Shown one piece after another: positions 17,763 through 33,942 of a DNA stretch of 64,000 nucleotides. The stretch covers positions 24,571 through 88,570 of the forward strand of contig CAYOPN010000002.1 of assembly GCA_964405835.1 (NCBI GenBank), in the 5' to 3' direction. Position 1 is the stretch's first letter; every line of letters begins with the position of its first letter. Below the pieces are notes generated by a model, which was not told where the DNA came from, did no database searches, and saw nothing but the letters and a program-made list of their open reading frames with translations. This DNA comes from an uncultured Elusimicrobia bacterium. Its GTDB lineage: Bacteria > Elusimicrobiota > Elusimicrobia > F11. A program made the translations under genes and the position numbers.

Positions 17763-18705
17763 ACACCGTCCCTTTTTTACTTGCTTTGAAAAATTCCACG
17801 ATGTTTTGTGCAGCGCGCAATTCCATGGCCACGCGCGAAGCATTGGTCAGCGTGGCCACGTGCGGCGTGCAAATCACATTGGAACGGCCCATGAGCGGAC
17901 CTTTGTAGGGTTCGTTCTCGTAAACGTCGAGCGCCGCGCCGCCGAGCCGTTTTTCATCCAGCGCTTTCACCAAAGCATTTTCGTCGATCATATAGCCGCG
18001 CGCGGTGTTCACGAGGAACGCCCCTTGCTTCATCTTGGCGAACTCAACCGTGCTCATCAAATGACCGTCCGATGGCTGGCGCGATGCGTGGAGCGACACC
18101 ACGTCCGATTCTGCGAGAAGCGCGTTGAAATCTTTCAGTTCGACGCCTTCAGGGACATCCGTTTTCTTCAACACCGGGTCCGACACCAGCACATGCGCGC
18201 CGAACGGAGAGAGCAAGCGCGCCACGGCGCGACCAATGCGGCCAAAACCAACCAGGCCGACCGTCCATTCGGAAAGCAATACGCCGGTATGCTTCTTCCA
18301 TTGGGAGGACTGGGAATCAAGCACGTGGGATGGAATGTTCCGCGCAAGCGCCAGGATCATCGCCACCGTCATCTCGGCCACCGGCTGAATCACCTCTTCG
18401 ATCGTTACCAGAACGGACACTCCATGTTGTTTGGCCGCAGCTAGATCAACCGCATCGGTCCCAATACCACAACGGCTCACGCATTTGAGCTCCGGAAGTG
18501 CCGCGAACAACGCCGCGTCGTATGGTTCGACGCCGGCCAGCACCGCATCGACGCATTTGAGCTCCGCTTCCATTTCTTCGCGTTTAAGCCGGTGGCCCAG
18601 CTTGTTTAAGTGGACCTCCATACCGGCGCGTTCCATGGCTTTGAGCGGTTCCTGCGACGTTTCGCAGAATTGCTGCAGCGCAACGTAGACCACCGGTCTC
18701 TTCAT
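17755..18705 (-). CDS. D-isomer-specific 2-hydroxyacid dehydrogenase (phosphoglycerate/glycerate dehydrogenase-like)
   Basis: TVGLVGFGRIGRAVARLL NAD motif, LLAESDVVSLH, FLVNTARG, AALDVYENEP...NVICTPHVA. Full-length D-2-HADH pattern. ATGA overlap at 18702. Confidence 0.8.
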   Translation of the reverse strand: MKRPVVYVALQQFCETSQEPLKAMERAGMEVHLNKLGHRLKREEMEAELKCVDAVLAGVEPYDAALFAALPELKCVSRCGIGTDAVDLAAAKQHGVSVLVTIEEVIQPVAEMTVAMILALARNIPSHVLDSQSSQWKKHTGVLLSEWTVGLVGFGRIGRAVARLLSPFGAHVLVSDPVLKKTDVPEGVELKDFNALLAESDVVSLHASRQPSDGHLMSTVEFAKMKQGAFLVNTARGYMIDENALVKALDEKRLGGAALDVYENEPYKGPLMGRSNVICTPHVATLTNASRVAMELRAAQNIVEFFKASKKGTVYA

Positions 18706-19475
18706 GCTGCGCTGCCCGTCTTGCTCAAGATATTTTCGAGCACGGCCAATTGCCGCTGGTCTTCTTTCAAATATTTTTCAACGAGCTCCACTTCGCGCGG
18801 CTCGTTGATGCCCGGGTAACCTTTGCTGAACGGCACACCTTGGATCATTACATCGTGCTCAAGTGTGCGGTTCTGATCGAGAGATTCTTGTATTTCGAGC
18901 GGCGTCCGGCTGAAAGCGCCGACTTGTTTGAGGAACTTCTTTTCAAACGCGAGGATCCCAAGCACAATCCGCACCGTCTCCGGCTTCATGTGCGAAAAGA
19001 TCCGCGAGCAAAACATGAGCCGGTCCGATGCCGACACCACGCATTTCACAATTGACTTGTCGCTGAGCTCGGCCGCGTCCGATATCGGGGCCGTCGCGTT
19101 CCATACGGGGCCCGCCGGATTGGACTTGATGGCGGCGACCAGGTTCTTCAAATCGTCTGGGAGGATTAGGATCTCGTCGCCTTGCACGTTCACCACATGC
19201 GTGCAATCGAGAGCATCGGCGGCCTCCGCTACACGGTCGGTGGCGCCAGGATGATTGGGATTGGTCATGATCACGCGGCCACCGAAACCTTCAATCGCGT
19301 CCTTCACTTCTTTATCGCAGGCCGCCACGACCACATCCGAGAAAACCCCCGCAAGGACCGCGCGGCGACGGACATGTTCGACCATAGGGATCCCGCGAAA
19401 CGGAAGCAACGGTTTCCCCGGAAAACGCGTGGAAGCCATGCGCGCAGGAATGATGGCGGCGACTTTTACGCTCAT
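18702..19475 (-). CDS. kdsB: 3-deoxy-manno-octulosonate cytidylyltransferase-like (KdsB/KpsU family)
   Basis: Start at the internal ATG 19475 (MSVKVAAIIPARMASTRFPGKPL). HPGATDRVAEA, VNVQGDEI and a LDQNRTLEH-type region parallel E. coli KdsB motifs as I recall them. The true substrate is unknown. ATGA overlap at 19472. Confidence 0.75.
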   Translation of the reverse strand: MSVKVAAIIPARMASTRFPGKPLLPFRGIPMVEHVRRRAVLAGVFSDVVVAACDKEVKDAIEGFGGRVIMTNPNHPGATDRVAEAADALDCTHVVNVQGDEILILPDDLKNLVAAIKSNPAGPVWNATAPISDAAELSDKSIVKCVVSASDRLMFCSRIFSHMKPETVRIVLGILAFEKKFLKQVGAFSRTPLEIQESLDQNRTLEHDVMIQGVPFSKGYPGINEPREVELVEKYLKEDQRQLAVLENILSKTGSAA

Positions 19476-20185
19476 TGCGGCAAAGTTCCGCAATCGACGT
19501 TCACGCATTGCCCCGTGATCGCCGAAGCGGCCGGACTTGCCAGAAAAAACACGGCCTCCGCCACTTCACGTTCGGTCGGCAAACGGCCAAGCGCCGTTTG
19601 GGTCTTTGCAAAATTCTTAAGGTACGCGGCCACGTTCGCCCCAAGCGGCGGCGCCGACTTTTCTTTCAGTGACTCCAAAATTGTTTTCGTGGCCACATAG
19701 ACCGGACACACGGCATTTACGCGAATACCTTTCGGTCCAAGTTCCTTTGCAAGTGACTGCGTGATGCCGTTCACAGCGAATTTTGACGCGCAATAGGCGC
19801 TGTTGTTGGCACTGCCGCGTTTGCCGGCCAGGCTTGACACGTTCACGATCGCGCCTCCCTTCTTCATCACGGAAGCAGCTGCCGCGCAGCCCCACATCGT
19901 TCCGAGCACATTGGTCTCATAAACCTGCGCCATAAAAGATTCATCAATGTCGGCGACCGGTTTCCAACGCGATACGCCCGCGCAATTCACCACCACATCG
20001 AGGCGTCCGTGCTTTTTCCGCACGGATTCGGCGAACGACATCACATCACGGCGCCGGCGCACATCACCGCCGTTCGAGCGCGCGTACACCTCCACTTTTG
20101 CGCCGCGGGACGAAAAAAGTTTCGCAATGGCGAGGCCGATGCCGCGTGTGCCGCCGGTGACGATGACGACGGGCGCCTTGATCAT
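19472..20185 (-). CDS. Short-chain dehydrogenase/reductase (classical SDR)
   Basis: Start at the internal ATG 20185 (MIKAPVVIVTGGTRGIGLAIA). NCAG, SSLAG...YCASK catalytic motif. ATGA overlap at 20182. Confidence 0.8.
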   Translation of the reverse strand: MIKAPVVIVTGGTRGIGLAIAKLFSSRGAKVEVYARSNGGDVRRRRDVMSFAESVRKKHGRLDVVVNCAGVSRWKPVADIDESFMAQVYETNVLGTMWGCAAAASVMKKGGAIVNVSSLAGKRGSANNSAYCASKFAVNGITQSLAKELGPKGIRVNAVCPVYVATKTILESLKEKSAPPLGANVAAYLKNFAKTQTALGRLPTEREVAEAVFFLASPAASAITGQCVNVDCGTLPQ

Positions 20186-20943
20186 ATGGTCATCGCGGTG
20201 AACCCGCCATCCACGGCAACGATGGAACCGGTCACGAAGCTCGCGGCGTCCGAGACGAGCCACAACACCGCGCCCACCAACTCCTCCGGCTTTCCATAAC
20301 GGCCCATCGGCGTGTGCCCGAGGATCTTGGCCTCACGGTCTTTGTCGATAAAATTTTTCATGCTCCATTCGGTCGGGAAAAAACCGGGCCGCAGCGCGTT
20401 CACGCGCACGCCTTGCGTCGCCCATTCGCGCCCCAGGTTCTGCGTGATGCTCGAGATGCCCGCTTTCGCCACCGAATACACAAACGCTTTCGAAAGCGGC
20501 GGACCCGAGGAGGCCGACGCAAAGTTCACAATGCTGCCGCTTCTCTGTTTCAACATGGTTTTACCGAAGACCTGGCAGGCGAGCAGCGTCGCGGTCACGT
20601 GGCTGTCGAAAATGCGGTGGACTTCTTCTTCGGTGATATCAAAGAACGGCGTCGGCGCGTTGACGCCCGCGCCGTTCAAGAGCACGTCGACGCGGCCGTG
20701 CTTCTTCAAAATTTCGTCGTGGCAACGCTGCAGGTCGGCCTTCTTGGTGACGTCACACGTCATGTCGGTCACCGCGACCTTTGACTTGTCGAGCGCGCTG
20801 GCCTTGATGTCAACGATCACGACCCTCATGCCCGATTCCGCCATGGCTTGCGCGATCGCCGAGCAGAGAAACCCGGCGCCGCCGACCACGACGGCCACTT
20901 TGTCTTTCAAATTAAAACGCTGGTCGATGGTGACGTGACTCAC
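20182..20943 (-). CDS. Short-chain dehydrogenase/reductase (classical SDR)
   Basis: KVAVVVGGAGFLCSAIAQAM, NGAG, FASASS...YSVAK. I propose the GTG at 20943 (VSHVTIDQ), a GTGA overlap with the upstream stop. The track extension overlaps the HAD gene. Confidence 0.75.
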   Translation of the reverse strand: MSHVTIDQRFNLKDKVAVVVGGAGFLCSAIAQAMAESGMRVVIVDIKASALDKSKVAVTDMTCDVTKKADLQRCHDEILKKHGRVDVLLNGAGVNAPTPFFDITEEEVHRIFDSHVTATLLACQVFGKTMLKQRSGSIVNFASASSGPPLSKAFVYSVAKAGISSITQNLGREWATQGVRVNALRPGFFPTEWSMKNFIDKDREAKILGHTPMGRYGKPEELVGAVLWLVSDAASFVTGSIVAVDGGFTAMTI

Positions 20944-21566
20944 GCGGCCTCCTTTAAAGAAACAAAATCTTTTATGAAGGGGCCGGAGGCCAGCGCCGCG
21001 TTCGCGACACCGATGAATGGACAACCCGCCGCCGCGGCGGAGCGCGCATCTTCGGCGGTGTCACCGAAAAAAACCAATTCGTAGCCGGCCAATCCCAGTC
21101 TTCCCCGGGCGGCGGTGAGCCATTCCGCCTTGTTCACCGGCGCCCCTTGGATCAGATCAAAATGGGGCGCCCAGTTACGTCCATTCAGAATCTCGGAAAG
21201 GTACTCGTGCGGCGTGCTGGAGAGCAGCGCGGTCTTGCGCGCGCTTTTCATTTGCAGCACAAAATCCAGCGCGCCCGGGATTTCGGGCGCCGCGATGATG
21301 GCCTTGGTGGTGGCCGCCGCGTACCGGGCCGTCAAATCTTCCTCTATGGCGGCCGTGTACGGTTTTTTCAGAATTGTCTCGTACACATAACGGAACTTCA
21401 CTTTGCGCGTGACATGGTGGTTGTTGTGGCAATAGTCGCGGATCTCGTTTGCGTGGGACGGAAAATCCGCGAAACAGAGATCGAACGCGCGGTATTTGAT
21501 GGGATTGGAATCCACGAGCGTTCCATCGAAATCAAAAATGACCAGCTTGACGTTATCCGGCAGCAA
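20940..21566 (-). CDS. HAD-superfamily phosphatase (HAD-IA, phosphoglycolate-phosphatase-like)
   Basis: Motif I LVIFDFDGTLVDSNP, motif II LLSSTP, motif IV VFFGDTAEDARSA. Start uncertain: TTG at 21566 puts the DxDGT motif about 10 residues from the N-terminus, whereas the track start 21629 overlaps the aldolase by 61 nt. Confidence 0.7.
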   Translation of the reverse strand: MLPDNVKLVIFDFDGTLVDSNPIKYRAFDLCFADFPSHANEIRDYCHNNHHVTRKVKFRYVYETILKKPYTAAIEEDLTARYAAATTKAIIAAPEIPGALDFVLQMKSARKTALLSSTPHEYLSEILNGRNWAPHFDLIQGAPVNKAEWLTAARGRLGLAGYELVFFGDTAEDARSAAAAGCPFIGVANAALASGPFIKDFVSLKEAA

Positions 21567-21568
21567 GA

Positions 21569-22348
21569 TTAAACGCGGACCTGTCTGACGGTTTTGAGCA
21601 ACTCGTTGGTGCGCTCCCCCCACTTCCACAACAGGAACACATCGGACGACAAGACCACGAACGTGTAACCGGCCGTAAGCGCTTCGGCAACGTTTTTCTC
21701 ATTTGGATCAACAACTTGCGTGCCGCAGGCCTTGCCGTGTTTCTCACAGGCCTTGACCACCCGTTCGCAAGCCGCGGCCACTTCGGGATGAAACAGTTGC
21801 CCCGGAACTCCCATGGAACCGGACAAATCGTAAGGCCCCACCATCACGCCGTCGATTTCCTTGAGTGAAAGAATGGAATCAATCGCTTCAACACCCTGGA
21901 CCGATTCGATCTGCACAATCAACGTGGACTGTTCATTCCAGGACTTGGTGTAGGAATCAAAATTGTGGCCGTATCCCTGAGCGCGACCCACGCCAAAGCT
22001 GCGTTTCCCGACCGGCGAATATTTCGACCATTCAATGATCTTCTGTGCTTCTTCTTTCGAGTTGACCATGGGGACGATGAGACCGTCCGCGCCGGAATCG
22101 AGCACGCGCTTGATCTGTTCGGCATTGTGGGAAGAGATGCGCGGCAGGCAAGGAATGCCGGCGGCCTGGCTGGTGGCGATGATGCCTTGCGCCTGTTCCA
22201 AACTGATGGTGCTGTGCTCAAGATCGATGCCAATGAAATCAACGCCCGCTTTTGTGAACGCTTCGGTGATGGAAAGATGCCCCAGCGACGTCCACGCGCC
22301 GAAAACCGATGAACGATTTTTTATTTTGGATCGGAAGTCAGTTCGCAA
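21569..22348 (-). CDS. HpcH/HpaI-family class II (metal-dependent) pyruvate aldolase
   Basis: SVFGAWTSLGHLSITEAFTKAGVDFIGIDLEHS...LIVPMVNSKEEAQKII...IVQIESVQGVEAIDSIL...DGVMVGPYDLSGSMG aligns along its length with HpaI/RhmA-type aldolases as I recall them. TTG start preceded by an AAGGGAG Shine-Dalgarno. Confidence 0.8.
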   Translation of the reverse strand: MRTDFRSKIKNRSSVFGAWTSLGHLSITEAFTKAGVDFIGIDLEHSTISLEQAQGIIATSQAAGIPCLPRISSHNAEQIKRVLDSGADGLIVPMVNSKEEAQKIIEWSKYSPVGKRSFGVGRAQGYGHNFDSYTKSWNEQSTLIVQIESVQGVEAIDSILSLKEIDGVMVGPYDLSGSMGVPGQLFHPEVAAACERVVKACEKHGKACGTQVVDPNEKNVAEALTAGYTFVVLSSDVFLLWKWGERTNELLKTVRQVRV

Positions 22349-22360
22349 AGATTATCTCCC

Positions 22361-23332
22361 TTACCACAAGATGTCGGACGGCCCCCAACTCTTGGGAGCC
22401 ACCGCATTGGAAAATCGCTGAAACCAGCGCGCCAGCCAATAGCGGCCGCGGACATTCGGAAGTTTCCCCAACAGACCCGGGCCGGCCAGAATGTGGCGGC
22501 GAATGTCGCGGGCTTCGGTTTCGGAAAAAAGTCCTTTTTCCTTTCCGATTTGCGCGAGCTCGGCCACATAATCATTTTTCTCGTACAAAATGGCGATCAA
22601 AATATTTTTCAACAACCGCTGCTTTGACAGCGATCCGTTGGCAGCGGAAAGGTCTTTAAAATAAAGCGCGTCTCCGAAAATAAGCTGACCGCGGTGATTC
22701 GCGGTCTTTTGCCCGCCTTCCCGTTTCCACCAGCAACGTTTCAAATCGAACAGCGAAAAACCTTTGGCGCGCAGCGCCTCGTCAATGTGCGAGAAGAGCG
22801 GCTGCCCTTTATAAAGTTCGGCGAATTCGACTTCCACCTCGATGCCGAGCAGCTTGTCGCACGACGCCAGGGCCCCTTTCAACACGTCCACTTCGCCGCC
22901 CTGCACGTCCAACTTCATGAAATCGGGAGAGACCTTCAACCCAGCGAGCACATTGTCCAGCGTGTCCACCGGCACCTCGACGGTCCTCTGAATGTCCCAC
23001 CGGCCGGAATCCGGAAAACGGGAGAGGAACGCGCGGTTGGGTTCGAGCATCGAGGAACATCCCGGCGCGCGCGTGAGGTTTAGTTTTCGCTGACCCGGCC
23101 GGTCCGCCAACGCCGTGGCCACAAAAGTTTGCCCGCCTTTGGCCGCGCTGTTGAGGCGGCTGCATTCGGCGGCATCCGGTTCGAAACCGACGACCCGCAA
23201 ATCAATACCCAAAGCGGCCCACCGGTCGTGGATGCCGGCCCGCGCGCCGACATCAATAAGAGTTATGGGATCGTTCTCGACCGCCGAGCGGAACAAAGGG
23301 GTTTGAAGCAAGGTCTTAAGGAGAGAAGACAT
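22361..23332 (-). CDS. FkbM-family methyltransferase
   Basis: Start moved to the ATG at 23332 (MSSLLKTLL), a TAATG 1-nt overlap. LIDVGARAGIHDRW, VVGFEPDAAEC, DFMKLDVQGGEVDVLKGA are FkbM-family signatures. Confidence 0.75.
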   Translation of the reverse strand: MSSLLKTLLQTPLFRSAVENDPITLIDVGARAGIHDRWAALGIDLRVVGFEPDAAECSRLNSAAKGGQTFVATALADRPGQRKLNLTRAPGCSSMLEPNRAFLSRFPDSGRWDIQRTVEVPVDTLDNVLAGLKVSPDFMKLDVQGGEVDVLKGALASCDKLLGIEVEVEFAELYKGQPLFSHIDEALRAKGFSLFDLKRCWWKREGGQKTANHRGQLIFGDALYFKDLSAANGSLSKQRLLKNILIAILYEKNDYVAELAQIGKEKGLFSETEARDIRRHILAGPGLLGKLPNVRGRYWLARWFQRFSNAVAPKSWGPSDILW

Positions 23333-24126
23333 TAGCGTGCGAACTCCGGTTTTGTTTCCCGTTCCCAAATTTCCGTGTTGTATTGGCGGTCCGGTTTTTG
23401 AAACACGTTCGACAGGCCGGACCGGGCCAGCAGTTCGCGCACGCGCGCGTCTTTTTGATCAAGGGAATCCATTTCAACGAGCAACGATTTCATGGCGGGG
23501 CCCGCGACGGTATTCACCGCTCCCTGCAATACATCGAGTTCGGTCCCGTCCACGTCGATTTTCAGCGCGGTCGGTTTGATGCCCGTTGCTTCCACGAAAT
23601 CGTCCAGCTTCATGGCCCAAATTCCTTCCTGATACACGACCGGCTGGCCGTTGTGCGTTATCGCCATGGGAGAACGCGATTCCGAATGGAGCGCCGCTCC
23701 GGGCGTCAGGTCCTGAACGTGCAGATGGCTAATCCCGGTCACGGCGCTGAGGCCGATTGAATAAACATCGATCACATCTTGAAGATGGTTCGCGGCCACG
23801 TTGTCCCGCAACAAATGAAGGTTTGAATATTCGGGTTCAAAGCAGACCACGCGAAGCCCCGGATGCCGGAGCGCCGCGTACAACGAGTAAACGCCGACAT
23901 TGGCGCCGACATCAAACAACACGTCGGTAGGCCCCAGCGATTTGTCGATCCAATCAAGCGTTTCTGGTTCTTTTGTGTTGAACGAGCTCCAACGGTAACT
24001 GGTGATGGGGTTGTCGCAAGCGAGCGTAAAGTGAAGGCCGCGCGAATGCACCGTACGGCGCGGCGTCAGCGAATGGATTAATTTCCAGCGAAGCTGGCCC
24101 AGTTTTCCGGAAAGGCGTGAGAGCAT
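23332..24126 (-). CDS. FkbM-family methyltransferase
   Basis: Start at the internal ATG 24126 (MLSRLSGKL), a TGATG 1-nt overlap. LFDVGANVGVYSLYAA, VVCFEPEYSNLHLL, ALKIDVDGTELDVLQGA. Confidence 0.75.
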   Translation of the reverse strand: MLSRLSGKLGQLRWKLIHSLTPRRTVHSRGLHFTLACDNPITSYRWSSFNTKEPETLDWIDKSLGPTDVLFDVGANVGVYSLYAALRHPGLRVVCFEPEYSNLHLLRDNVAANHLQDVIDVYSIGLSAVTGISHLHVQDLTPGAALHSESRSPMAITHNGQPVVYQEGIWAMKLDDFVEATGIKPTALKIDVDGTELDVLQGAVNTVAGPAMKSLLVEMDSLDQKDARVRELLARSGLSNVFQKPDRQYNTEIWERETKPEFAR

Positions 24127-24755
24127 CAGCGCGCCGGCGCCGCGGCGGCCGGGACCGAGGTCTCCCATTTGTTTCCTTGCGCCATCAAACGCGGATCGGA
24201 AACGATGCCGTGCCAGACGACGCCTTGGAACGCTTCGGAATGCGGCGTGACGTTGTTGGGGTTGACCGTGGGCACCACGACCACAATGTCGCCGCGCTGC
24301 TTGGTGTATCCGCCATCGCGGCCGACAATGCCCAAGACCGTCATACCGCGGGTCTTGGCTTCGTCGATCGCGGAAACCAAATTGGGGCTGATGTTCTTTT
24401 CGCGATTGCCGCCGCCCACGGAAAAAATCAGGACCGCGTCTTTCGGGCCGCCCTTGCTGACCTTGAGCCAGGCGGCGAATACCGTGTCCCAGCCTTCGTC
24501 GTTCGTGCGCGCCGTGAGCTCGGAAACGTTATCGGTCGGCGCGTAGGCCTCGATGCCGGCCAGTTTTCGAAAATCGTTCACGGCGTGGCCGCAATTGCCG
24601 GCGCTGCCGCCGACGCCAAGCAGGAACAGCCGGCCGCCGTCTTCGCGCAGCTTGACCAGACGCTGGACCATCCGGTCGATCGCTTGGCGGTCCAACCCGC
24701 GCGCCACCTGCTCCACTTCGGACAAGTACGTCTCAATGAAATTTGTTTTTTCCAT
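24126..24755 (-). CDS. SIS-domain sugar-phosphate isomerase, GmhA (sedoheptulose-7-phosphate isomerase)-like
   Basis: RLFLLGVGGSAGNCGHAVNDFRK ... DAVLIFSVGGG ... GMTVLGIVGRDGG. Single-SIS protein of GmhA size and layout. Confidence 0.7.
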   Translation of the reverse strand: MEKTNFIETYLSEVEQVARGLDRQAIDRMVQRLVKLREDGGRLFLLGVGGSAGNCGHAVNDFRKLAGIEAYAPTDNVSELTARTNDEGWDTVFAAWLKVSKGGPKDAVLIFSVGGGNREKNISPNLVSAIDEAKTRGMTVLGIVGRDGGYTKQRGDIVVVVPTVNPNNVTPHSEAFQGVVWHGIVSDPRLMAQGNKWETSVPAAAAPAR

Positions 24756-24764
24756 TCCGGTCCC

Positions 24765-25496
24765 TCAGGCCTTGCTCATCTGGCGCAAAACGAACCCGGC
24801 TTTCTTCGCGTCGTTGTAAAACATCTTCACGGTGTCCAAAGAAAATTCGCCGAGGTCTTTTCCGTTCAGCGACAGCTTTTCAATCAAATCATCGGTGGCG
24901 GTGATGATATGGCAGCCGGCGGAGTCCGCCTGATAGATATTCAACGTCTCGCGCGGGCTTGCCCAAAGGACCTTGGCCTTGGGAAATGGCGCGAAGTCCT
25001 TTACGGCTTTTTGCATGACGGGCAATGGATCAACGCCGGTGTCGGCGATGCGTCCGGCGAAAATGGAAACAATGATATCGTCCTGCGGCTTGAGCGCCGC
25101 GCGGAGCCCGTCCAATTGCGCTTGCGTAAGAATGGCTGTAACGTTCAGCTTCACCCCTTTATCAAACAACCGCCGGATCAACGGCACCGACGATTCGCCG
25201 CGTGTGTTCGTGATCGGAATTTTCACGTTCACGTTCTCGCCCCAGGTGGCAATCAACGCCGCCTGCTCCTCCATCTCGGCGAACTCATCAGAAAAAACCT
25301 CGAATGAAATCGGCAGGTCCTTCACTTCGGCCAGCACCGTTTTCGCGAACTGCTCGTAATCGCTGATCCCCGCCTTCGCCATGAGCGTGGGGTTGGTGGT
25401 GAACCCTTTCACGAATCCCTGGCGATACCGCTTTAAGATGGTCTCCACATTGGCGCCATCTCCAAACACGGCGATTTTTAATTTGGGCAAAGACAT
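24765..25496 (-). CDS. Transaldolase-family protein (short TalC/fructose-6-phosphate-aldolase type)
   Basis: GFTTNPTLM, the catalytic-lysine region NVNVKIPIT, and VSIFAGRIAD correspond to the GVTTNPS / VKVP / NRID motifs of type 3B transaldolase/FSA enzymes. Confidence 0.8.
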   Translation of the reverse strand: MSLPKLKIAVFGDGANVETILKRYRQGFVKGFTTNPTLMAKAGISDYEQFAKTVLAEVKDLPISFEVFSDEFAEMEEQAALIATWGENVNVKIPITNTRGESSVPLIRRLFDKGVKLNVTAILTQAQLDGLRAALKPQDDIIVSIFAGRIADTGVDPLPVMQKAVKDFAPFPKAKVLWASPRETLNIYQADSAGCHIITATDDLIEKLSLNGKDLGEFSLDTVKMFYNDAKKAGFVLRQMSKA

Positions 25497-25507
25497 AGTT
25501 TCTCCTC

Positions 25508-26461
25508 TTAGCGTTTCTTCGCGACGATCCGGGCAAACGAACTGAGCCCGGCTTTTTGCAAAAACGATTGGAATTCTTTTTTCACATCGGCCCCGGACGC
25601 CATGAGTTCGCGTTCAAATGACGAGAGGGACAGGTCGGCGTTCTGGTCCACGTGCGCCTGCACAATTTCGACATCGAGCACGCCCGGTGTGCTTACTTCC
25701 TGCAGCGCAAAGCCGTTCTTTTCCAGAAGCAGCTCGAGTCCTTTCAACGTGAAACAATTGGTGCGGTCCGGCGGACAAAAATAAAGATTGTTGAAGCCGA
25801 GTAGGGTCATATCAAAACCCGAAGCGACCAGCGCGGTGATAAACAACAACCCGCCCGGCGCCAAGCGTTCCGCCACGGCCGTGAGCAATTTCTGAGGGTC
25901 GTTCACGTGGTCCAAATTCTCAAGCATCACCGCGGCCTGCGCCGCCGGCCCTTTCGGCGCTTTACCGGCAACCAAATCCATTTCTCCCAGGGAACGCACA
26001 TCACGGAACGCTTCGCTCAAAAGCGCCGTGAACCGGCTTTGGGGCGGCGCCACTTCCAAGACCGACGGCTTGTCGACGCCTTGGATCTGTAGCGTGCGCT
26101 GGATCCAATCCAATTTCGGCAAATACACGTTCTCGGTGCGGCTGCCGGCCACGCCCGCGTGAAACCCATCGGGAGACTGACGGCGGCGCGTTACCTCCGA
26201 CAAGACCGCCTCCCACGCGGCGGCGTCGGGCAAATTGAGCAGGAAAAGACTTCCGGTCGCAGGGCAACGCCCGTATTCCAGTCCTTCCACGGCCCCCGCG
26301 GGGACCAAGGGACTGCCGAGAGGAGAGAGCCCGCGCTTGGCCGACTTTGCGGCCAGCGCTTTCTTGGTTGTTTCAATGCAAAACTGCCGGTACGCGCGCA
26401 ACCCATCCAGCGCTTTCACCGACGATAATGGGAACGCAACGTTGGTCTCGGTCAAAATCAT
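25508..26461 (-). CDS. Putative SAM-dependent methyltransferase
   Basis: C-terminal half has VLEVAPPQSRF, AAVMLENLDHVNDPQKLL and LAPGGLLFITALV (class I methyltransferase post-I/III motifs). The N-terminal part is unassigned. Confidence 0.55.
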   Translation of the reverse strand: MILTETNVAFPLSSVKALDGLRAYRQFCIETTKKALAAKSAKRGLSPLGSPLVPAGAVEGLEYGRCPATGSLFLLNLPDAAAWEAVLSEVTRRRQSPDGFHAGVAGSRTENVYLPKLDWIQRTLQIQGVDKPSVLEVAPPQSRFTALLSEAFRDVRSLGEMDLVAGKAPKGPAAQAAVMLENLDHVNDPQKLLTAVAERLAPGGLLFITALVASGFDMTLLGFNNLYFCPPDRTNCFTLKGLELLLEKNGFALQEVSTPGVLDVEIVQAHVDQNADLSLSSFERELMASGADVKKEFQSFLQKAGLSSFARIVAKKR

Positions 26462-26462
26462 A

Positions 26463-27479
26463 TTACTCCCTCCCCACAGACAGCACGTCCCGCTTCGCGT
26501 ACACGTCGCGGATGATTTCCATCACTTGCCGCGCTTCGTCCAGCGTCCCGTGTGTCGCCGGCCGCTTCTCTTTAATCGCCGCCAGGAATTCGTTCACTTC
26601 CTTGTCCCAGGACTCGTCGCGGTCAAAATGGATGATTTCCTCGCGCGGGTTGCCGAGCGCGAACGCCTCGTCTTCAAATTGGCGTTTTCCGATGACGAGT
26701 TGCTCGCGGCCGTAGCTGCCCGTGCGAGAAAGCAGGCCCGAAGCGATCAGATAGCCGTTCTCGCAGCCGATCTCAAAACGGAATGTGTGCTTCCACAGCG
26801 TGGCGGAAGAATGAAGAAAGGCGGGAACGCCTTTTTCGGAGCGGAGCAGCAGGAACGCGTTGTCTTCGACGCCGCACTTCCAGAACGAATCGCTGAGCAC
26901 ACCGTCGGTGACCTGGCAGGGGCCGAGAAAATTCAAAAAGATGTCGAGCATGTGAATGCCTTGATCAAGCAGGATGCCGCCGCCAGAAACCTGTTTGTCG
27001 TTGCGCCAGCTCTGCCGGTAATGCACGCCCCCCGACTTACCGTAAGTGCCCTTCATGTAAAGAATTTGGCCGAGGCTGCCCCCTTTAAGGAGCGACTTGG
27101 CGGTCACAACGGAAGGATGAAGCCGGTGATTAAATCCAAAAACGACGGTGTGGTTGGGGGTCGCTGCGGCCGCGTCCGCAATGCGGGAAAAATCATCCCA
27201 ATTGCGGCCCGGCGGTTTTTCACAGAAAACGTGGCGGCAATTCTTAATCGCTTCCACGCAGAGGTCGGAGGTGACGTTGTTGGGAGTGCAGATAAAAGCG
27301 GCGTCAAACTGGTCCCAAGGGATCCGTTCGCTGGTTGAAAGGGGCGTTCCAACAATGTCTTTCTGATGGGGGTCCAGCGCCGGGTCGTAGATCTTCACGT
27401 CGCTCACGTCCGGGTGTTGTTTAAGGACTTTGGCGCGGATCCGTCCCATATAGCCGTAACCAATTACAATGCATCGCAT
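26463..27479 (-). CDS. Gfo/Idh/MocA-family NAD(P)-dependent oxidoreductase
   Basis: MRCIVIGYGYMGRIRAKVL Rossmann start, VFCEKPP (EKP motif), and a C-terminal alpha/beta domain of the expected size. Confidence 0.8.
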   Translation of the reverse strand: MRCIVIGYGYMGRIRAKVLKQHPDVSDVKIYDPALDPHQKDIVGTPLSTSERIPWDQFDAAFICTPNNVTSDLCVEAIKNCRHVFCEKPPGRNWDDFSRIADAAAATPNHTVVFGFNHRLHPSVVTAKSLLKGGSLGQILYMKGTYGKSGGVHYRQSWRNDKQVSGGGILLDQGIHMLDIFLNFLGPCQVTDGVLSDSFWKCGVEDNAFLLLRSEKGVPAFLHSSATLWKHTFRFEIGCENGYLIASGLLSRTGSYGREQLVIGKRQFEDEAFALGNPREEIIHFDRDESWDKEVNEFLAAIKEKRPATHGTLDEARQVMEIIRDVYAKRDVLSVGRE

Positions 27480-27491
27480 AAGGGCGGGATT

Positions 27492-29060
27492 CTACAATAG
27501 GAAACGGGCAAATTTACCGACGGAATCGGCGGTCATCGGCTCAACCATGGCATCCACATCTCGGCAGGCCGCGGCCCAATCCGGACGCAGGGAAGCCCCG
27601 TCCGAACCGCGAAAAACGTTCAATATGCGCTCAAACTCCTCCGGCGCGCCGGCATGTTCCTTCCATTTGGCGATCAGATAGAGCGGATCGACAACCGGTC
27701 CGGGCTCCCCCGCCCAATAGATGGGCTTGACCCCATCCAACACCGAATAAATCGCGGCCGAAGAGCCGCGGTAAACCAGCGCCGAACACTCCACAAAATC
27801 ATCGTGAATGGCGGGGCGCGTGGACAGATGGATATTTTGAAATTCGTCTTTCTTTCGTTTGAGGAAAGGCGCCGCTTTTTCGTACGGAAGGACCGGGTGG
27901 CAGCGGAAAACAAACTCATGATCCGGCAAACGGGCCGCCAGGTCCATCGCCAAATCAAACAGCAACACCATCTCTTTTAAGATCCCTTCCGGGAGAACCA
28001 GCACCCGCTTCTTCGCAGGACGTGGAGCGGTCGGCTCCGGCGCTTGCGCGGGCCGCCGATGCGAACCGAGCACCAACAAATTTGATTGGAAGGGACGGAA
28101 ACCGGCATCCATGCGCTGACGTGTCCCCTCTCCGGTGCACAAAACGATTTCGGGCGCAGCGATATCCCCTTCCACCGATTGCGGGTTTAACAACGCCAAA
28201 CAATGCGGCAACAAAACCGTGTGTTGATATCCCGCCAACTTCACGGCAGAATCGGCTGCTTTGGCGCCTTTCCAAAAAACCTTTTCCCAAGGCTGCCCCT
28301 CGAACAACGTGACCACGCTGCGCGGCCGCCAGGTTTGAACGGCGCGTTTCGCAATCCAATAAAACATGTGGTTCTTGGTGGTGTAGGGCCGCAGCACGTC
28401 CAGCACCGCCATCGCGGCCACGCGTCGAAGGAGTCCGCTGGATTGGCGCGCCAATCGACGCAAACGCAGAGCACAACCGAATTGCTGGAGGACGCTCAAA
28501 AGCGGCGCCCACCATGGAATCAACAGGAACTCCGGAAAGCGCAGCTTATTCGGATTCCCCACGCAGGCCCCGGCAAAAAGCAGCGCGGTCCAACCGACCT
28601 TCAATTTGGCGGACAAACTGCCGTCATCGGACTTGGCGTCGCCGACCAGAAAAAGCGCCCGCACATTGTTTTCGGCGAGGAGGTCCCTCAGGGGTCCAAA
28701 ATAAAAATCCGATGCCTTGCTCAATCCTTCCCGGCCGGGCACCCATGATTTAATGAGAATGTCCGGTTTCCCGTATTTGTACCGGTCCCCTATAAAAATG
28801 ATCGAACAAAAAAGCAGCAACAACGCATCGTAGACAGCGGAGAAAAGGCCAATGGAGGTCTTCAGCAAACAAGTGAAGATACCCGGAACATTGACGGGCG
28901 CTTGTTTGGATTCCTCTTCCAGCAAACGAAGATGTTCCGGCGGCACGGAATGGCGCGGATGAACAAGGCTCGTGGCGAGCAGCACGCGGTCGCGGACCGC
29001 GCGTCTCAATTCAAGGACAGCGTCAGCGAGCGACGCGTAGAGTTGGGAGGACGTTTCCAT
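27492..29060 (-). CDS. Uncharacterised protein, possibly GT-B-like surface-carbohydrate transferase
   Basis: 522 aa with no recognisable catalytic motif. The C-terminal half (RVLVLPEGILKE...FVFRCHPV...ALVYRGSSAAIYSVLDGVKPIY) resembles the nucleotide-sugar-binding half of GT-B/capsule-type transferases. ATG at 29060 overlaps the upstream gene by 38 nt. Confidence 0.35.
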   Translation of the reverse strand: METSSQLYASLADAVLELRRAVRDRVLLATSLVHPRHSVPPEHLRLLEEESKQAPVNVPGIFTCLLKTSIGLFSAVYDALLLLFCSIIFIGDRYKYGKPDILIKSWVPGREGLSKASDFYFGPLRDLLAENNVRALFLVGDAKSDDGSLSAKLKVGWTALLFAGACVGNPNKLRFPEFLLIPWWAPLLSVLQQFGCALRLRRLARQSSGLLRRVAAMAVLDVLRPYTTKNHMFYWIAKRAVQTWRPRSVVTLFEGQPWEKVFWKGAKAADSAVKLAGYQHTVLLPHCLALLNPQSVEGDIAAPEIVLCTGEGTRQRMDAGFRPFQSNLLVLGSHRRPAQAPEPTAPRPAKKRVLVLPEGILKEMVLLFDLAMDLAARLPDHEFVFRCHPVLPYEKAAPFLKRKKDEFQNIHLSTRPAIHDDFVECSALVYRGSSAAIYSVLDGVKPIYWAGEPGPVVDPLYLIAKWKEHAGAPEEFERILNVFRGSDGASLRPDWAAACRDVDAMVEPMTADSVGKFARFLL

Positions 29061-31158
29061 TTTTTATTTCAACGATCTTATCGGCGCCCCAGGCGTCCGC
29101 GTAACGTTCCGCGGCCATGGCCAACACCTGGTCGCGCTGCTTTCCTGCTTTGAATCCTTGCAGCAACCATTGCAAATAGGCCCCTATGCGTTGGGCGGCC
29201 TTTCCGTCGCGGAACGGGTCCATAAGCGGCAAGACCGGCGACCAGTCGCCAAAACCGGCGATGCCGCCCTGTCTGGTGAAATGTTCGTGGCACGCGGGCC
29301 AAAGATCTTCCCAGCGTTTAAAGAAGACCCGCCCTTCTCCCAATTGGTGGAACGGGCTCACGTGCCAGCCTTCGATGTCCAACAGCAGCGTCGGGACGCC
29401 GGCGAGCGCGGCTTCCAAACCGGCGGTCCCCGCAAAAAGACTGTTGTGGATGGCGAGGTCGGAGGCCAAGGCGGCCGTGGCGGGCGTGTGGGCCCCCATG
29501 CGTTCACCTTCCTGCAAAACCACGCAGCGCCCGGTGGCCTCGGCTTCTTTGAGCAAATTGGCGTAAGGGCCGAGACGCGTCCGGACGGTCCGTGGAATTT
29601 TCGGTTTAAAAATCACGCCAAGCCAAGGCTCCCGCAACACCTTTTCGCACAAGAGACGGTATCCAAGCGCTTGCAGGTCGTGCCCGGTGTTCCAACGGTC
29701 GTCCGCCATCGAATTTTCGTCGAAGAACGTGATGATTTTGCGCGCGCCATTTTTCAACAGCGATTCGCGCAGCGCCTGCGCCTGTTTTTTTACGAGCGAA
29801 TACCGGTAGTCGCCGATGTAACCGGACGCCACGCAGTACGAAATCTTGGACAGCGATTGGCGCTCAATGTCGAAGGAATAAGGCGAAAACACAAAATCCA
29901 CGTCGGCCGTGACCGCCAAATCCGGCGCGCCGAGCGCGTCGAAGGAACGTTGGAAAAGCGCGGTCACGCCGCCGTTTTCCTCCATGGCCTCCGCAATCGC
30001 GCAGTGGTCGGCCGTGTAACGGTACCACGTGAAATACACTTTCAAATTTTCTGACCGGAACACGTCCAACCAATTGGATTTCAACGCGCTGAAACGCGCC
30101 AACGCGTCGTTGATTTGCCGGGCCTCTGAACTTTTCGACACGACCGTTATGGCGGGGTTGTATTTCCGTTTCCGTCCGACATTGTAGATGGGCGCCGAAA
30201 AAACCCGCGTCGCTTCGGGCCGGAGCACCACGGGAGAAATCCCATGCGGCGCCATCTCCGCCTGTTTCAATTGATCGTACGGCATGAACGGGCCGCCGAA
30301 GAGAAGCGCCACATCGGCCCCCGGAAACTGGGCCTGTTGCCAAAAGAAAAGATCGGAAAACGCCCCAGGTTTGTTGATGTTGAGCTGGCCGTAATAATCC
30401 ACGCCGATCCGCGGGTCCGCCGGCGCAGCCGGACGCGGGCGTTTAACAAGCCATTTCAATAGAGACCGCCGGTAACCGGCATTTTTTAAATCCGCTTTGC
30501 GATGACGGTAAATGTTCCCCCACTCGATGGCCCATTGGGGCAATAGCGCTTTGATTTTTTTCTGCAGGGCCTCGAACAGGCGGAACGCGGGCGGAACGAA
30601 CACCAGGTCCATTTTCATTTGACCGGCGTAACTCTTTAAGACCTCGCGCCACGGCGTAATTTCGAGGAAAAGCGTTATCGCCGAAGCGGACGGCAACTCC
30701 AATTGGCGGCGTTTCCAATCCGCCACCTGGATCAAATACACAACGCGCCCCATGGTCCCGCGAAACGGGATCATCACATCGCACAGCGACTTGTACACAA
30801 ACGTTTCCACGCGCCCTTTGAGCGCGCCCACTTTTTCAAACTGACGGTAGAGCGGATCGCGCCGGACCGCTTCGTAAATGTGGGCGAGTTCCATGAAGGC
30901 CACGCGCAGTTGCACGAGAAGACCAGCGGCGTCTTTCACGTCGATCATGCGAAAGCGGAACATTTCGACGCGGAAACCAAAAAAGAACGCAGTCGCGCGG
31001 GCAGCCCACCAACCGGGCAACGAACGGTCAATTAGAAAACAGGTAAGTGAGCTGAAGGGTTTCTTTTGGGTGCGATCGCGCCAAAGCCGGGGAAGGATGT
31101 GAAACAGCCAGACGCGCGCCGTGCAATGTTCGACGATGGTGAGAAAAGGCGGGTTCAA
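29023..31158 (-). CDS. Uncharacterised large protein, possibly GT-B-like surface-carbohydrate transferase
   Basis: About 711 aa from the TTG at 31158 (TTGA overlap with the aminotransferase stop). The C-terminal region LASDLAIHNSLFAGTAGLEAALAGVPTLLLD is GT-B-like. Otherwise there is no family I can name. Confidence 0.35.
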   Translation of the reverse strand: MNPPFLTIVEHCTARVWLFHILPRLWRDRTQKKPFSSLTCFLIDRSLPGWWAARATAFFFGFRVEMFRFRMIDVKDAAGLLVQLRVAFMELAHIYEAVRRDPLYRQFEKVGALKGRVETFVYKSLCDVMIPFRGTMGRVVYLIQVADWKRRQLELPSASAITLFLEITPWREVLKSYAGQMKMDLVFVPPAFRLFEALQKKIKALLPQWAIEWGNIYRHRKADLKNAGYRRSLLKWLVKRPRPAAPADPRIGVDYYGQLNINKPGAFSDLFFWQQAQFPGADVALLFGGPFMPYDQLKQAEMAPHGISPVVLRPEATRVFSAPIYNVGRKRKYNPAITVVSKSSEARQINDALARFSALKSNWLDVFRSENLKVYFTWYRYTADHCAIAEAMEENGGVTALFQRSFDALGAPDLAVTADVDFVFSPYSFDIERQSLSKISYCVASGYIGDYRYSLVKKQAQALRESLLKNGARKIITFFDENSMADDRWNTGHDLQALGYRLLCEKVLREPWLGVIFKPKIPRTVRTRLGPYANLLKEAEATGRCVVLQEGERMGAHTPATAALASDLAIHNSLFAGTAGLEAALAGVPTLLLDIEGWHVSPFHQLGEGRVFFKRWEDLWPACHEHFTRQGGIAGFGDWSPVLPLMDPFRDGKAAQRIGAYLQWLLQGFKAGKQRDQVLAMAAERYADAWGADKIVEIKNGNVLPTLRVAR

Positions 31159-33291: not shown

Positions 33292-33335
33292 GGGCGTGTC
33301 TCTATCAAAAATTGGCTACGGCGGCTATCAGCTAA

Positions 33336-33362
33336 CTTGAGGTCACAAACTGTGACCTCAAG
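33336..33362. repeat. Perfect hairpin/palindrome P1: CTTGAGGTCACA-aac-TGTGACCTCAAG
   Basis: 12-nt arms with a 3-nt loop, ending 3 nt before the ORF6N stop codon (33366-33368), with the T5 run that follows on the plus strand extending into that stop codon. Its 11-nt arm core is identical to palindrome P2 inside the ORF6N gene. Confidence 0.9.
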
Positions 33363-33365
33363 TTT

Positions 33366-33905: not shown

Positions 33906-33942
33906 TCCGTGAAGGGGTGCGGATTTTACGTCGGAGGGGTTC

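Follow-up and report, generated by a model that had tools for sequence, protein, structure and literature searches.

Background

The octose of lincomycin is made by a pathway comprising the transaldolase LmbR, the isomerase LmbN, the kinase LmbP, the phosphatase LmbK, the guanylyltransferase LmbO and the tailoring enzymes LmbL, LmbZ, LmbM and LmbS (PMC4351081, PMC12945683, PMC5854111). A transaldolase is needed in this pathway because octulose-8-phosphate is not a central metabolite, and the same argument can be applied to glycan loci. The present analysis concerns a 64-kb stretch of DNA from an uncultured Elusimicrobia bacterium (contig CAYOPN010000002.1), referred to throughout as the window, which is occupied by one large glycan island lying almost entirely on the minus strand; within it, a gene for a short-type transaldolase adjoins a gene for an SIS-domain isomerase related to GmhA. 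Among characterised systems, the lincomycin pathway is the only one in which a GmhA-like isomerase is known to be accompanied by a transaldolase of its own, and canonical heptose loci, to our knowledge, carry no transaldolase.

Acidic keto-deoxy sugars, among them 3-deoxy-D-manno-oct-2-ulosonic acid (Kdo) and the sialic, legionaminic and pseudaminic acids, have a central place in the biology of the envelope, in host recognition and as receptors for phages, and all of the routes to such sugars known to us employ phosphoenolpyruvate (PEP)-dependent synthases of the KdsA or NeuB type, acting on C5 or C6 acceptors. The transaldolase and isomerase of the window may represent two steps of a conserved ten-gene cassette (approximately 17755-29060) for a cytidine monophosphate (CMP)-activated, higher-carbon 2-ulosonic acid of a surface glycan, a reading to which a probability of about 0.45 was assigned. 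Judging by sequence and gene context, the product would probably be a long-chain, Kdo-like acidic sugar.

Compared with the Kdo pathway (KdsD, KdsA, KdsC and KdsB), and with the Kdn pathway (3-deoxy-nonulosonic acid; Kdn-9-phosphate synthase, phosphatase and CMP-Kdn synthetase), the cassette is alike in that an SIS-fold isomerase, a C3 extension, a HAD phosphatase and a CTP_transf_3 cytidylyltransferase would follow one another in the same step order. The enzymes themselves differ, however: the isomerase is a GmhA-type SIS_2 protein without CBS domains, whereas KdsD combines SIS with CBS; the predicted aldolase is a pyruvate-dependent HpcH/HpaI protein rather than a PEP-dependent KdsA or NeuB; and the predicted phosphatase is of the HAD-IA or GmhB-like kind rather than KdsC (HAD-IIIA, YrbI). 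No synthase of the KdsA or NeuB type was found in the cassette, and the NeuB genes of the island are 20-40 kb away. The likeness to the lincomycin and celesticetin clusters lies in the dedicated transaldolase adjoining a GmhA-like isomerase, both in the window and in its relatives. Among those relatives it extends to a kinase, a HAD-IIIA phosphatase, a nucleotidyltransferase, a nucleoside diphosphate (NDP)-sugar dehydrogenase, a Gfo/Idh/MocA enzyme and an epimerase, and these families match one for one. The window cassette, by contrast, is without the kinase, the sugar-1-phosphate nucleotidyltransferase and the NDP-sugar dehydrogenase, and of the tailoring families it has only Gfo/Idh/MocA; it also belongs to a surface-glycan island and not an antibiotic cluster, and its likeness to LmbR and LmbN is one of family and gene order alone.

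Results

A coupled transaldolase and isomerase

An earlier, sequence-only reading of this DNA had picked out four minus-strand open reading frames, encoding the transaldolase, the isomerase and two FkbM-family methyltransferases, as a candidate higher-carbon sugar branch. All four were recovered at the positions and in the families that it gave (Table 1), and when the junctions were read from the sequence the genes proved to be translationally coupled. Nine nucleotides (gggaccgga) separate the stop codon of the transaldolase (TGA, 24767-24765) from the ATG of the isomerase (24755) on the same strand, the isomerase stop overlaps the start of the first FkbM gene (TGATG at 24126), and the stop of that gene overlaps the start of the second (TAATG at 23332).

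The transaldolase exceeded the cut-offs of both Pfam TAL_FSA (PF00923; 131.6 bits, cut-off 27) and NCBIfam TIGR02134, 'transald_staph' (325.9 bits, cut-off 281.95). It retains the Asp of FGDGAN, the Glu of SFEVFS, the Lys of NVKIP and the Phe of SIFAGR; the Lys is the Schiff-base residue, and the presence of Phe and not Tyr is the signature of a transaldolase as opposed to a fructose-6-phosphate aldolase. The enzyme is proposed to form a C7 or C8 ketose phosphate. The isomerase scored 38.2 bits on Pfam SIS_2. Its best NCBIfam model was gmhA (TIGR00441), at 54.7 bits against a cut-off of 209.45, the other gmhA models giving 40-49 bits against cut-offs of 265-320, and its best match in the PDB was GmhA of Burkholderia pseudomallei (55 bits). 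Since 54.7 bits falls far short of the gmhA cut-off, the protein is GmhA-like but no standard GmhA.

Co-occurrence of the pair across genomes

One genome per species was scanned with the window transaldolase as the query. The 80 loci obtained encode proteins 45-81% identical to it and are spread over Elusimicrobiota, Bdellovibrionota, Bacteroidota, Ignavibacteria, Verrucomicrobiota, Alphaproteobacteria, Spirochaetota, Micrarchaeota and further groups. In 67 of these an isomerase of the same clade, sharing 48-67% identity with that of the window, was present within 10 kb; the two genes were directly adjacent in 35 loci, no more than 2 kb apart in 61 and on the same strand in 62. This pairing is far beyond chance, and shows a functional pair that is syntenic across phyla and is kept together in related glycan loci. 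A dedicated transaldolase in such a locus, which the sequence-only reading had considered unusual, is not rare; the isomerase clade comprised 391 clusters at 50% identity (E <= 1e-30). When the window isomerase was used as the query, homologs sharing 70-90% identity with it numbered in the thousands and came from Elusimicrobiota and Omnitrophota.

Most loci (60 of 80) possessed a kinase/NDP route. A GHMP kinase was found in 47, accompanied by a nucleotidyltransferase in 43 and by a GmhB-like HAD protein in 28 of them, while 13 loci carried an HldE-like kinase/adenylyltransferase, in most cases alongside epimerases, a Gfo/Idh/MocA enzyme and an NDP-sugar dehydrogenase; a DegT aminotransferase also occurred in loci of this second type. 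In the HldE-like proteins (L006 4253-5812, L021 12744-14291 and others) the adenylyltransferase domain is N-terminal and the kinase domain C-terminal, the opposite order to that in Escherichia coli HldE. Because a kinase, a phosphatase and a nucleotidyltransferase accompany the pair in these loci, the pair would appear to deliver an aldose phosphate that needs activation.

The kinase-type loci resemble the pathways to guanosine diphosphate (GDP)-heptose and adenosine diphosphate (ADP)-heptose (GmhA with HddA, GmhB and HddC, or with HldE and GmhB), in that an SIS_2 isomerase related to GmhA is flanked by HddA-, GmhB-, HddC- or HldE-like genes. However, all of their enzymes missed the curated models for canonical heptose synthesis by a wide margin. 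The HddA-like kinases scored 179-189 bits against a cut-off of 600, the HddC-like proteins 93-95 against 300, the GmhB-like proteins 107-113 against 178, the HldE-like proteins of reversed domain order 129-159 against 521, and the isomerase clade 51-55 against 209. The full LmbR/N/K/P/O/L/Z/M family set, including a GHMP kinase and an SDR/epimerase, was present in two cultured carriers. The first is Lawsonia intracellularis, where plasmid 3 (L105, NC_008014.1, LI_RS06835-LI_RS06875) encodes the SIS isomerase, a HAD-IIIA protein, the transaldolase, a nucleotide-sugar dehydrogenase, a short-chain dehydrogenase/reductase (SDR), a Gfo/Idh/MocA enzyme, a 'galactokinase' and a nucleotidyltransferase. 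The second is Rhizobium jaguaris, where nine kinase-type cassette genes stand in a row on pRCCGE525c (L106, NZ_CP032695.1, ~969-977 kb). In the PLSDB gene table, which is incomplete, the R. jaguaris stretch shows no genes.

Because the kinase-type loci share the Lmb family set and score far below the canonical heptose cut-offs, the logic of LmbR and LmbN remains, by analogy, a live reading of the pair. The proposal that such a pair feeds a C7 or C8 aldose phosphate into the glycan was fair on the same grounds, together with the synteny of the two genes. C8 and C7 are about equally likely, with a slight leaning to C8; against C8, the window transaldolase fits a model based on presumed housekeeping enzymes, and the supply of sedoheptulose-7-phosphate by a self-sufficient mobile cassette would also be a sufficient explanation.

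It could be supposed instead that a housekeeping transaldolase of the pentose-phosphate pathway and a GmhA of the lipopolysaccharide core lie in the island by chance. The transaldolase does pass TIGR02134, a model derived from Staphylococcus and Coxiella enzymes that were presumed to be housekeeping. Yet translational coupling ties the genes into a glycan operon, the pair is syntenic across phyla with genes for sugar activation, and the isomerase reaches little more than a quarter of the gmhA cut-off, so this explanation was considered scarcely credible.

An aldolase-type variant of the cassette

The window carries no anomeric sugar kinase, as the sequence-only reading had observed. Homologs of the GHMP kinase and of the HldE-like and GmhB-like proteins from related loci were sought throughout the 64 kb and not found, none of the heptose set of kinase, GmhB and nucleotidyltransferase was found there, and the cassette itself contains no sugar-1-phosphate nucleotidyltransferase. 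That reading had left the activation steps unaccounted for at this point; although the absence of a kinase stands, the genes immediately downstream (17755-22348) had been overlooked, namely those for an HpcH protein, a HAD protein, two SDRs, a KdsB-like protein and a 2-hydroxyacid dehydrogenase. The missing activation would be explained if the HpcH aldolase, the HAD phosphatase and the KdsB-like cytidylyltransferase stand in for the kinase/NDP route.

The HpcH protein aligned over its full length with GarL (1dxe), YfaU (2vws), 3qz6 and HpaI, and retained the DxEH, Arg, QIE and GPxDL motifs; it fell below the equivalog models for HpaI, GarL and RhmA (125-153 bits against 369-441). Enzymes of the GarL, YfaU and HpaI type form or break down 4-hydroxy-2-oxo acids, in other words 3-deoxy-2-ulosonic acids, which are the kind of substrate used by KdsB-like enzymes. 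By sequence, the cassette cytidylyltransferase is KdsB/KpsU-like rather than NeuA-like: its best match in the PDB was E. coli KpsU (1gq9; 123 bits, full length), enzymes of the NeuA type scored no more than 35 bits, and its counterpart in one Bacteroidota locus (L054) passed both KdsB subfamily cut-offs, at 268 and 246 bits. The best NCBIfam models for the first SDR were D-mannonate oxidoreductase (240 bits), gluconate 5-dehydrogenase and KduD, and this likeness to sugar-acid dehydrogenases was counted in favour of the ulosonic-acid reading. The Gfo/Idh/MocA protein weakly matched the model for the D-xylose 1-dehydrogenase Gfo6.

The conserved 522-aa protein at the upstream end of the cassette gave a confident AlphaFold model (predicted local distance difference test, pLDDT, 93.1; predicted template modelling score, pTM, 0.91), which Foldseek matched to GT1 glycosyltransferases, uridine diphosphate N-acetylglucosamine (UDP-GlcNAc) 2-epimerases and TagF (E ~1e-8). 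On this model the protein has a GT-B fold and is no kinase, and it is a candidate either for the transferase of the product or for an enzyme resembling a 2-epimerase or hydrolase. In one related locus (L103, 5879-7993, P0260) a GmhB-like HAD phosphatase is fused to a member of this family, an arrangement resembling synthase-phosphatase pairs such as OtsA/OtsB; from this fusion, the GT-B enzyme may act on a phosphorylated sugar.

Table 1. Genes of the transaldolase-isomerase cassette and of the block upstream of it (window coordinates)
Feature	Position	Strand	Family evidence
D-2-hydroxyacid dehydrogenase (phosphoglycerate dehydrogenase (PGDH)/glyoxylate-reductase-like)	17755-18705	minus	2-Hacid_dh_C 178 bits; PGDH model 215 bits (cut-off 454)
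KdsB/KpsU-like cytidylyltransferase	18702-19508	minus	CTP_transf_3 125.7 bits
SDR oxidoreductase 2	19472-20263	minus	adh_short_C2 174.3 bits
SDR oxidoreductase 1, sugar-acid dehydrogenase-like	20182-21024	minus	adh_short_C2 178.7 bits
HAD-IA phosphatase (predicted), phosphoglycolate-phosphatase-like	20940-21629	minus	PF00702 64 bits
HpcH/HpaI class II pyruvate aldolase (predicted)	21569-22348	minus	PF03328 113.2 bits (cut-off 25)
FkbM methyltransferase 2	22361-23332	minus	TIGR01444 61.6 bits (cut-off 37.7); PF05050 59.8 bits (cut-off 22.7)
FkbM methyltransferase 1	23332-24126	minus	TIGR01444 84.3 bits (cut-off 37.7); Methyltransf_21/PF05050 50 bits (cut-off 22.7)
Single-domain SIS_2 ketose-phosphate isomerase (predicted), GmhA-related clade, 209 aa	24126-24755	minus	SIS_2
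Short-type transaldolase (TIGR02134 clade), 243 aa	24765-25496	minus	Pfam TAL_FSA; NCBIfam TIGR02134
Methyltransf_23 methyltransferase, directly upstream of the pair	25508-26461	minus	PF13489 39.4 bits
Gfo/Idh/MocA oxidoreductase, same family as LmbZ and PtmF	26463-27479	minus	GFO_IDH_MocA_C3 81.6 bits
Conserved 522-aa GT-B-fold protein	27492-29060	minus	no Pfam match; weak TIGR04326 match
Accessory upstream block: 723-aa protein, LegC-family aminotransferase, LegB-like 4,6-dehydratase, ORF6N gene, CBS + nucleotidyltransferase (PtmE-like)	29023-35016	minus	Pfam, NCBIfam

Eight loci of this aldolase type were assembled: the window, five contexts of homologs from the search with the window isomerase (L001, L003, L004, L103 and L104), and, out of the scan with the transaldolase, two loci of Bacteroidota (L054 and L065). 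Together they come from Elusimicrobiota, Omnitrophota and Bacteroidota. The transaldolase, the isomerase, the HpcH aldolase, a HAD phosphatase, the Gfo/Idh/MocA enzyme and the 522-aa GT-B protein were found in all eight, and no kinase was found in any of them (10-kb flanks, or 64 kb for the window). The KdsB-like cytidylyltransferase and the 2-hydroxyacid dehydrogenase were found in six, the other two loci ending before that position. Homologs of SDR1 (54-72%) and of SDR2 (38-64%) were each present in seven. Identities for the Gfo protein were 67-71% in the Elusimicrobiota and Omnitrophota loci and 47-48% in Bacteroidota, with homologs at 32-37% in many kinase-type loci. The HpcH and HAD genes were adjacent in the window, L001, L054, L065 and L104. 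A metagenome scan with the HpcH protein yielded 13 loci, of which only one was a close relative, on a 1.2-kb contig.

Two of the conserved activities had been replaced in some loci. The first instance concerned the transaldolase: five of the eight loci have one from another TAL_FSA clade (31-36% identity, nearest TIGR00875) with the same catalytic residues; Asp13, Glu66, Lys92 and Phe146 were invariant in an alignment across both clades. Since these loci use another clade with transaldolase residues, the activity seems to have been kept through non-orthologous replacement. The second instance concerned the phosphatase, where L003, L004 and L103 have a GmhB-like HAD-IIIA protein in place of HAD-IA, fused in L103 to the GT-B protein as noted above. 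That the transaldolase and the phosphatase were swapped, and that the decorating genes vary, indicates that the activities themselves are under selection.

Among the decorating genes that varied were those for FkbM and other methyltransferases, a carbamoyltransferase and a B12 radical-SAM enzyme. Methyltransf_23 homologs (47-56%) lay directly upstream of the isomerase in L001, L003, L004, L103 and L104. A homolog of FkbM1 (53%) stood next to the transaldolase in L004, L103 and L104 and was absent from L001, L003, L054 and L065, while a homolog of FkbM2 (38%) occurred only in L004. The two FkbM enzymes therefore look like a variable O-methyl decoration outside the core, FkbM1 being semi-conserved and, from its family, probably acting in O-methylation.

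The presence of legionaminic-type genes nearby raised another explanation, in which the legionaminic-type nonulosonic acid of the island receives a side chain or other modification from the cassette, such as a 2,3-di-O-methylglyceroyl group formed by the 2-hydroxyacid dehydrogenase and the two FkbM enzymes, with the transaldolase and isomerase merely feeding precursors. The two O-methyltransferases and the PGDH-like dehydrogenase required are indeed present, LegB-, LegC- and PtmE-like genes lie upstream, and a second set (epimerase with acetyltransferase, NeuB and cytidylyltransferase) is found at 44495-48155. But the FkbM genes are missing from half of the loci, and the accessory Leg block, linked to the cassette in L003, L004, L103 and L104, is missing from L001, L054 and L065, where the cassette is nevertheless intact; the KdsB-like enzyme and the strict pairing of transaldolase and isomerase would also be left unexplained. 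This made a side-chain role very unlikely. Likeness to the legionaminic acid pathway (PtmE, PtmF, PtmA, LegB, LegC, LegG/H, LegI and LegF) extends to the LegB/LegC-like, PtmE-like, NeuB, epimerase-acetyltransferase and cytidylyltransferase genes of the island, and the Gfo and SDR proteins of the cassette belong to the PtmF and PtmA families; in contrast, the cassette aldolase and cytidylyltransferase are not of the NeuB and NeuA types, and the Bacteroidota cassettes have no Leg genes.

The same Bacteroidota loci bear on the possibility of an ordinary NDP-heptose or NDP-octose branch. Here, the kinase, phosphatase and nucleotidyltransferase would lie outside the window (or the CBS-nucleotidyltransferase at 33943-35016 would serve), and the HpcH, HAD and KdsB-like proteins would make a separate sugar, for instance a Kdo-like acid from arabinose-5-phosphate supplied by KpsF. 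The kinase/NDP route of most loci with the pair agrees with this, as do the GmhB-like HADs of L003, L004 and L103, the cassette-linked genes for a LegB-like dehydratase and a PtmE-like nucleotidyltransferase that the window has in common with L004 and L103, and the presence of KpsF in the window. It was nonetheless judged unlikely, given that a kinase is wanting in all eight aldolase-type loci and throughout the 64 kb, and that in Bacteroidota the ten cassette genes are contiguous without Leg genes or a nucleotidyltransferase, so that the transaldolase and isomerase directly accompany the HpcH, HAD and KdsB-like genes. KpsF, moreover, has no homolog in any related locus, and for this reason the suggestion that it supplies the acceptor pentose phosphate was abandoned. 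The KpsF gene (SIS with CBS) directly adjoins one for a PdxA-family dehydrogenase (2650-4529, minus strand), and no KdsA was seen in the window.

Residue conservation and phylogeny of the isomerase

In the isomerase clade, His57 and Asp61 were invariant, and there was a six-residue insertion in the phosphate loop. Comparison was made with His61, Glu65, Gln172 and His180 of E. coli GmhA, using an approximate reference sequence. The His is conserved and the Gln is present in the window protein, the region of His180 aligns ambiguously, and the catalytic Glu65 is replaced by Asp in all 72 clade members, a further difference from the GDP- and ADP-heptose pathways. The window isomerase was 56-58% identical to those of the kinase-containing loci L006 and L007, and a rough neighbour-joining tree nested the isomerases of the aldolase-type variant among those of the kinase type, with all invariant positions common to both. 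One column distinguished them: at position 215 of the alignment (Asp187 in the window) there was Asp in six of six aligned aldolase-type proteins and in 117 of the 120 closest homologs, and His in 50 of 55 kinase-type proteins. This residue may bear on specificity or on product stereochemistry.

Fusions within the clade joined the isomerase to HAD-IIIA or to a nucleotidyltransferase, and none of the fusions examined was to a transaldolase. The N-terminal extensions of some homologs (P0266 and P0267), checked for carrier domains like that of LmbN, contained no Pfam domain. Identification of the isomerase with PtmF of the legionaminic acid pathway was also considered and rejected, PtmF being a 326-aa oxidoreductase.

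A proposed pathway to a long-chain ulosonic acid

In the proposed pathway, the transaldolase would transfer a C3 unit from fructose-6-phosphate or sedoheptulose-7-phosphate to erythrose-4-phosphate or a pentose-5-phosphate, giving sedoheptulose-7-phosphate (C7) or, as with LmbR, octulose-8-phosphate (C8). The SIS enzyme would convert this ketose phosphate to the aldose phosphate, in the manner of GmhA and LmbN. Neither phosphorylation at the anomeric carbon nor NDP activation would come next; the HpcH/HpaI class II aldolase would rather join pyruvate to the aldehyde, producing the phosphate of a 3-deoxy-2-ulosonic acid. Because the acceptor fed by the transaldolase is C7 or C8, this product would have 10 or 11 carbons and not eight or nine. 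The HAD enzyme would strip the terminal phosphate, the Gfo, SDR and 2-hydroxyacid dehydrogenases would tailor the chain, and the KdsB-like enzyme would form the CMP-sugar, for which the GT-B-fold protein is a candidate transferase; the two FkbM enzymes and the Methyltransf_23 enzyme may methylate the product. The gene families, catalytic motifs, synteny and co-occurrence were observed directly, whereas we infer every substrate, the order of the steps and the chain length.

Many of the same genes would be used in an oxidative route that does not lengthen the chain. The aldose phosphate would be dephosphorylated, the Gfo enzyme would oxidise C1 and the 2-hydroxyacid dehydrogenase C2, to give a hept- or oct-2-ulosonic acid resembling D-glycero-D-talo-oct-2-ulosonic acid (Ko), which the KdsB-like enzyme would activate, the HpcH protein having its role elsewhere. 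The Gfo/Idh/MocA family includes aldose 1-dehydrogenases, consistent with the weak Gfo6 match, and the product of 17755-18705 is similar in sequence to reductases of glyoxylate/hydroxypyruvate and of 2-keto acids; six core genes, four of them in eight of eight loci (Gfo, HAD, transaldolase and isomerase) and two in six of eight (2-hydroxyacid dehydrogenase and KdsB-like), would be used sensibly. Such a route would, however, leave idle an ever-present HpcH aldolase with intact catalytic motifs; KdsB-family enzymes are known for 3-deoxy acids; and the kinase-type loci, in which C1 is occupied, have Gfo homologs too. An aldolase-free route was thus thought distinctly unlikely.

Several points weigh against the pathway through the HpcH aldolase. 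It was drawn up from sequence and gene context, and no 10- or 11-carbon ulosonic acid was found in the literature searched, the coverage of which excluded subscription journals. Pyruvate aldolases are reversible and usually catabolic. The scores of the window cytidylyltransferase lie slightly below the KdsB subfamily cut-offs (NF009905, 207.7 bits against 255; NF003952, 191.8 against 193). Because of the Asp in place of His at column 215, the substrate or product of the aldolase-type isomerase could differ from that of the kinase type. The Gfo, 2-hydroxyacid dehydrogenase and SDR proteins could serve the oxidative route instead, a kinase could sit beyond the 10-kb flanks or outside the window, and the GT-B protein might be an NDP-sugar hydrolase or 2-epimerase, implying another source of the aldehyde.

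Taken further, the pathway would define a new class of sugar: a CMP-activated 3-deoxy-dec- or undec-2-ulosonic acid (C10/C11), variously O-methylated or carbamoylated. A pyruvate-dependent HpcH aldolase would build it on a heptose or octose phosphate provided through the transaldolase, and Elusimicrobiota, Omnitrophota and some Bacteroidota would carry it on their surface. A corollary is that the far more frequent kinase-type cassettes of L. intracellularis, R. jaguaris, Bdellovibrionota, Bacteroidota and other bacteria would be counterparts, in glycan synthesis, of the lincosamine NDP-octose pathway. This extended claim is possible but doubtful, and is put forward tentatively. The literature searched contained no report of a transaldolase-isomerase glycan cassette or of linkage between an HpcH aldolase and a KdsB-like enzyme, and nothing relevant on octose in glycans or on a transaldolase with nonulosonic acid, legionaminic acid or GmhA gene clusters; the aldolase-type cassette would therefore be a previously unreported variant.

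Other features of the glycan island

Besides the cassette, the island contains two NeuB synthases, four CTP_transf_3 cytidylyltransferases, an epimerase-acetyltransferase fusion, LegB/LegC-like and PtmE-like genes, a HisH/HisF-like pair, glycosyltransferases, Wzx, a Wzy_C-domain protein of the O-antigen ligase/polymerase type and KpsF; it seems to make several ulosonic acids. A fuller legionaminic-type set, consisting of a UDP-GlcNAc 2-epimerase fused to a PglD-like acetyltransferase, a NeuB and a PseF-like cytidylyltransferase, is found with the HisH/HisF-like amidotransferase pair at 44495-49570 and 35013-36509 (minus strand). Two of the cytidylyltransferases are parts of fusions, both on the minus strand. 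The first (55155-57329) is a 724-aa protein in which CTP_transf_3 is joined to a class-III aminotransferase domain, an arrangement reminiscent of FrbH of phosphonate biosynthesis. The second (58176-59594) is a 472-aa protein in which it is joined to an Rv2179c-like 3'-5' exoribonuclease domain, and is followed by a PhyH-like dioxygenase (59446-60384) and the second NeuB (62776-63984).

The accessory block upstream of the cassette scored 452.5 bits on TIGR04181 (above 420) and 460.5 bits on TIGR04180 (cut-off 475). Between its PtmE-like and LegB-like genes, inside the glycan operon, is a gene with an ORF6N domain (33366-33905, minus strand, 110.7 bits), a family typical of phage antirepressor-like proteins. 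The conserved 723-aa protein after the LegC-like gene (29023-31194, minus strand) has homologs at 39-43% in L003, L004, L103 and L104, and its C-terminal third is well conserved. It had no match in Pfam, NCBIfam or the PDB and no P-loop motif, comparison with the 522-aa family by hhalign was not significant, and its single-sequence AlphaFold model (pLDDT 34) showed no usable fold.

Discussion

If the proposed pathway is true, the combination of a pyruvate aldolase with a C7 or C8 acceptor widens both the chemistry and the size range of keto-deoxy sugars, and the cassette becomes a genomic marker for such sugars in poorly known phyla. Activation cassettes built around the transaldolase-isomerase pair form a large 'heptose-like' family, whose members are now annotated as ordinary heptose genes. 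Kinase-type cassettes are carried by a pig pathogen (Lawsonia) and by a legume symbiont, which makes them tractable for asking whether bacterial glycans contain octoses; should the corollary hold, octose sugars would be a widespread component of the bacterial envelope. The results also hint at the source from which lincomycin producers recruited their sugar pathway.

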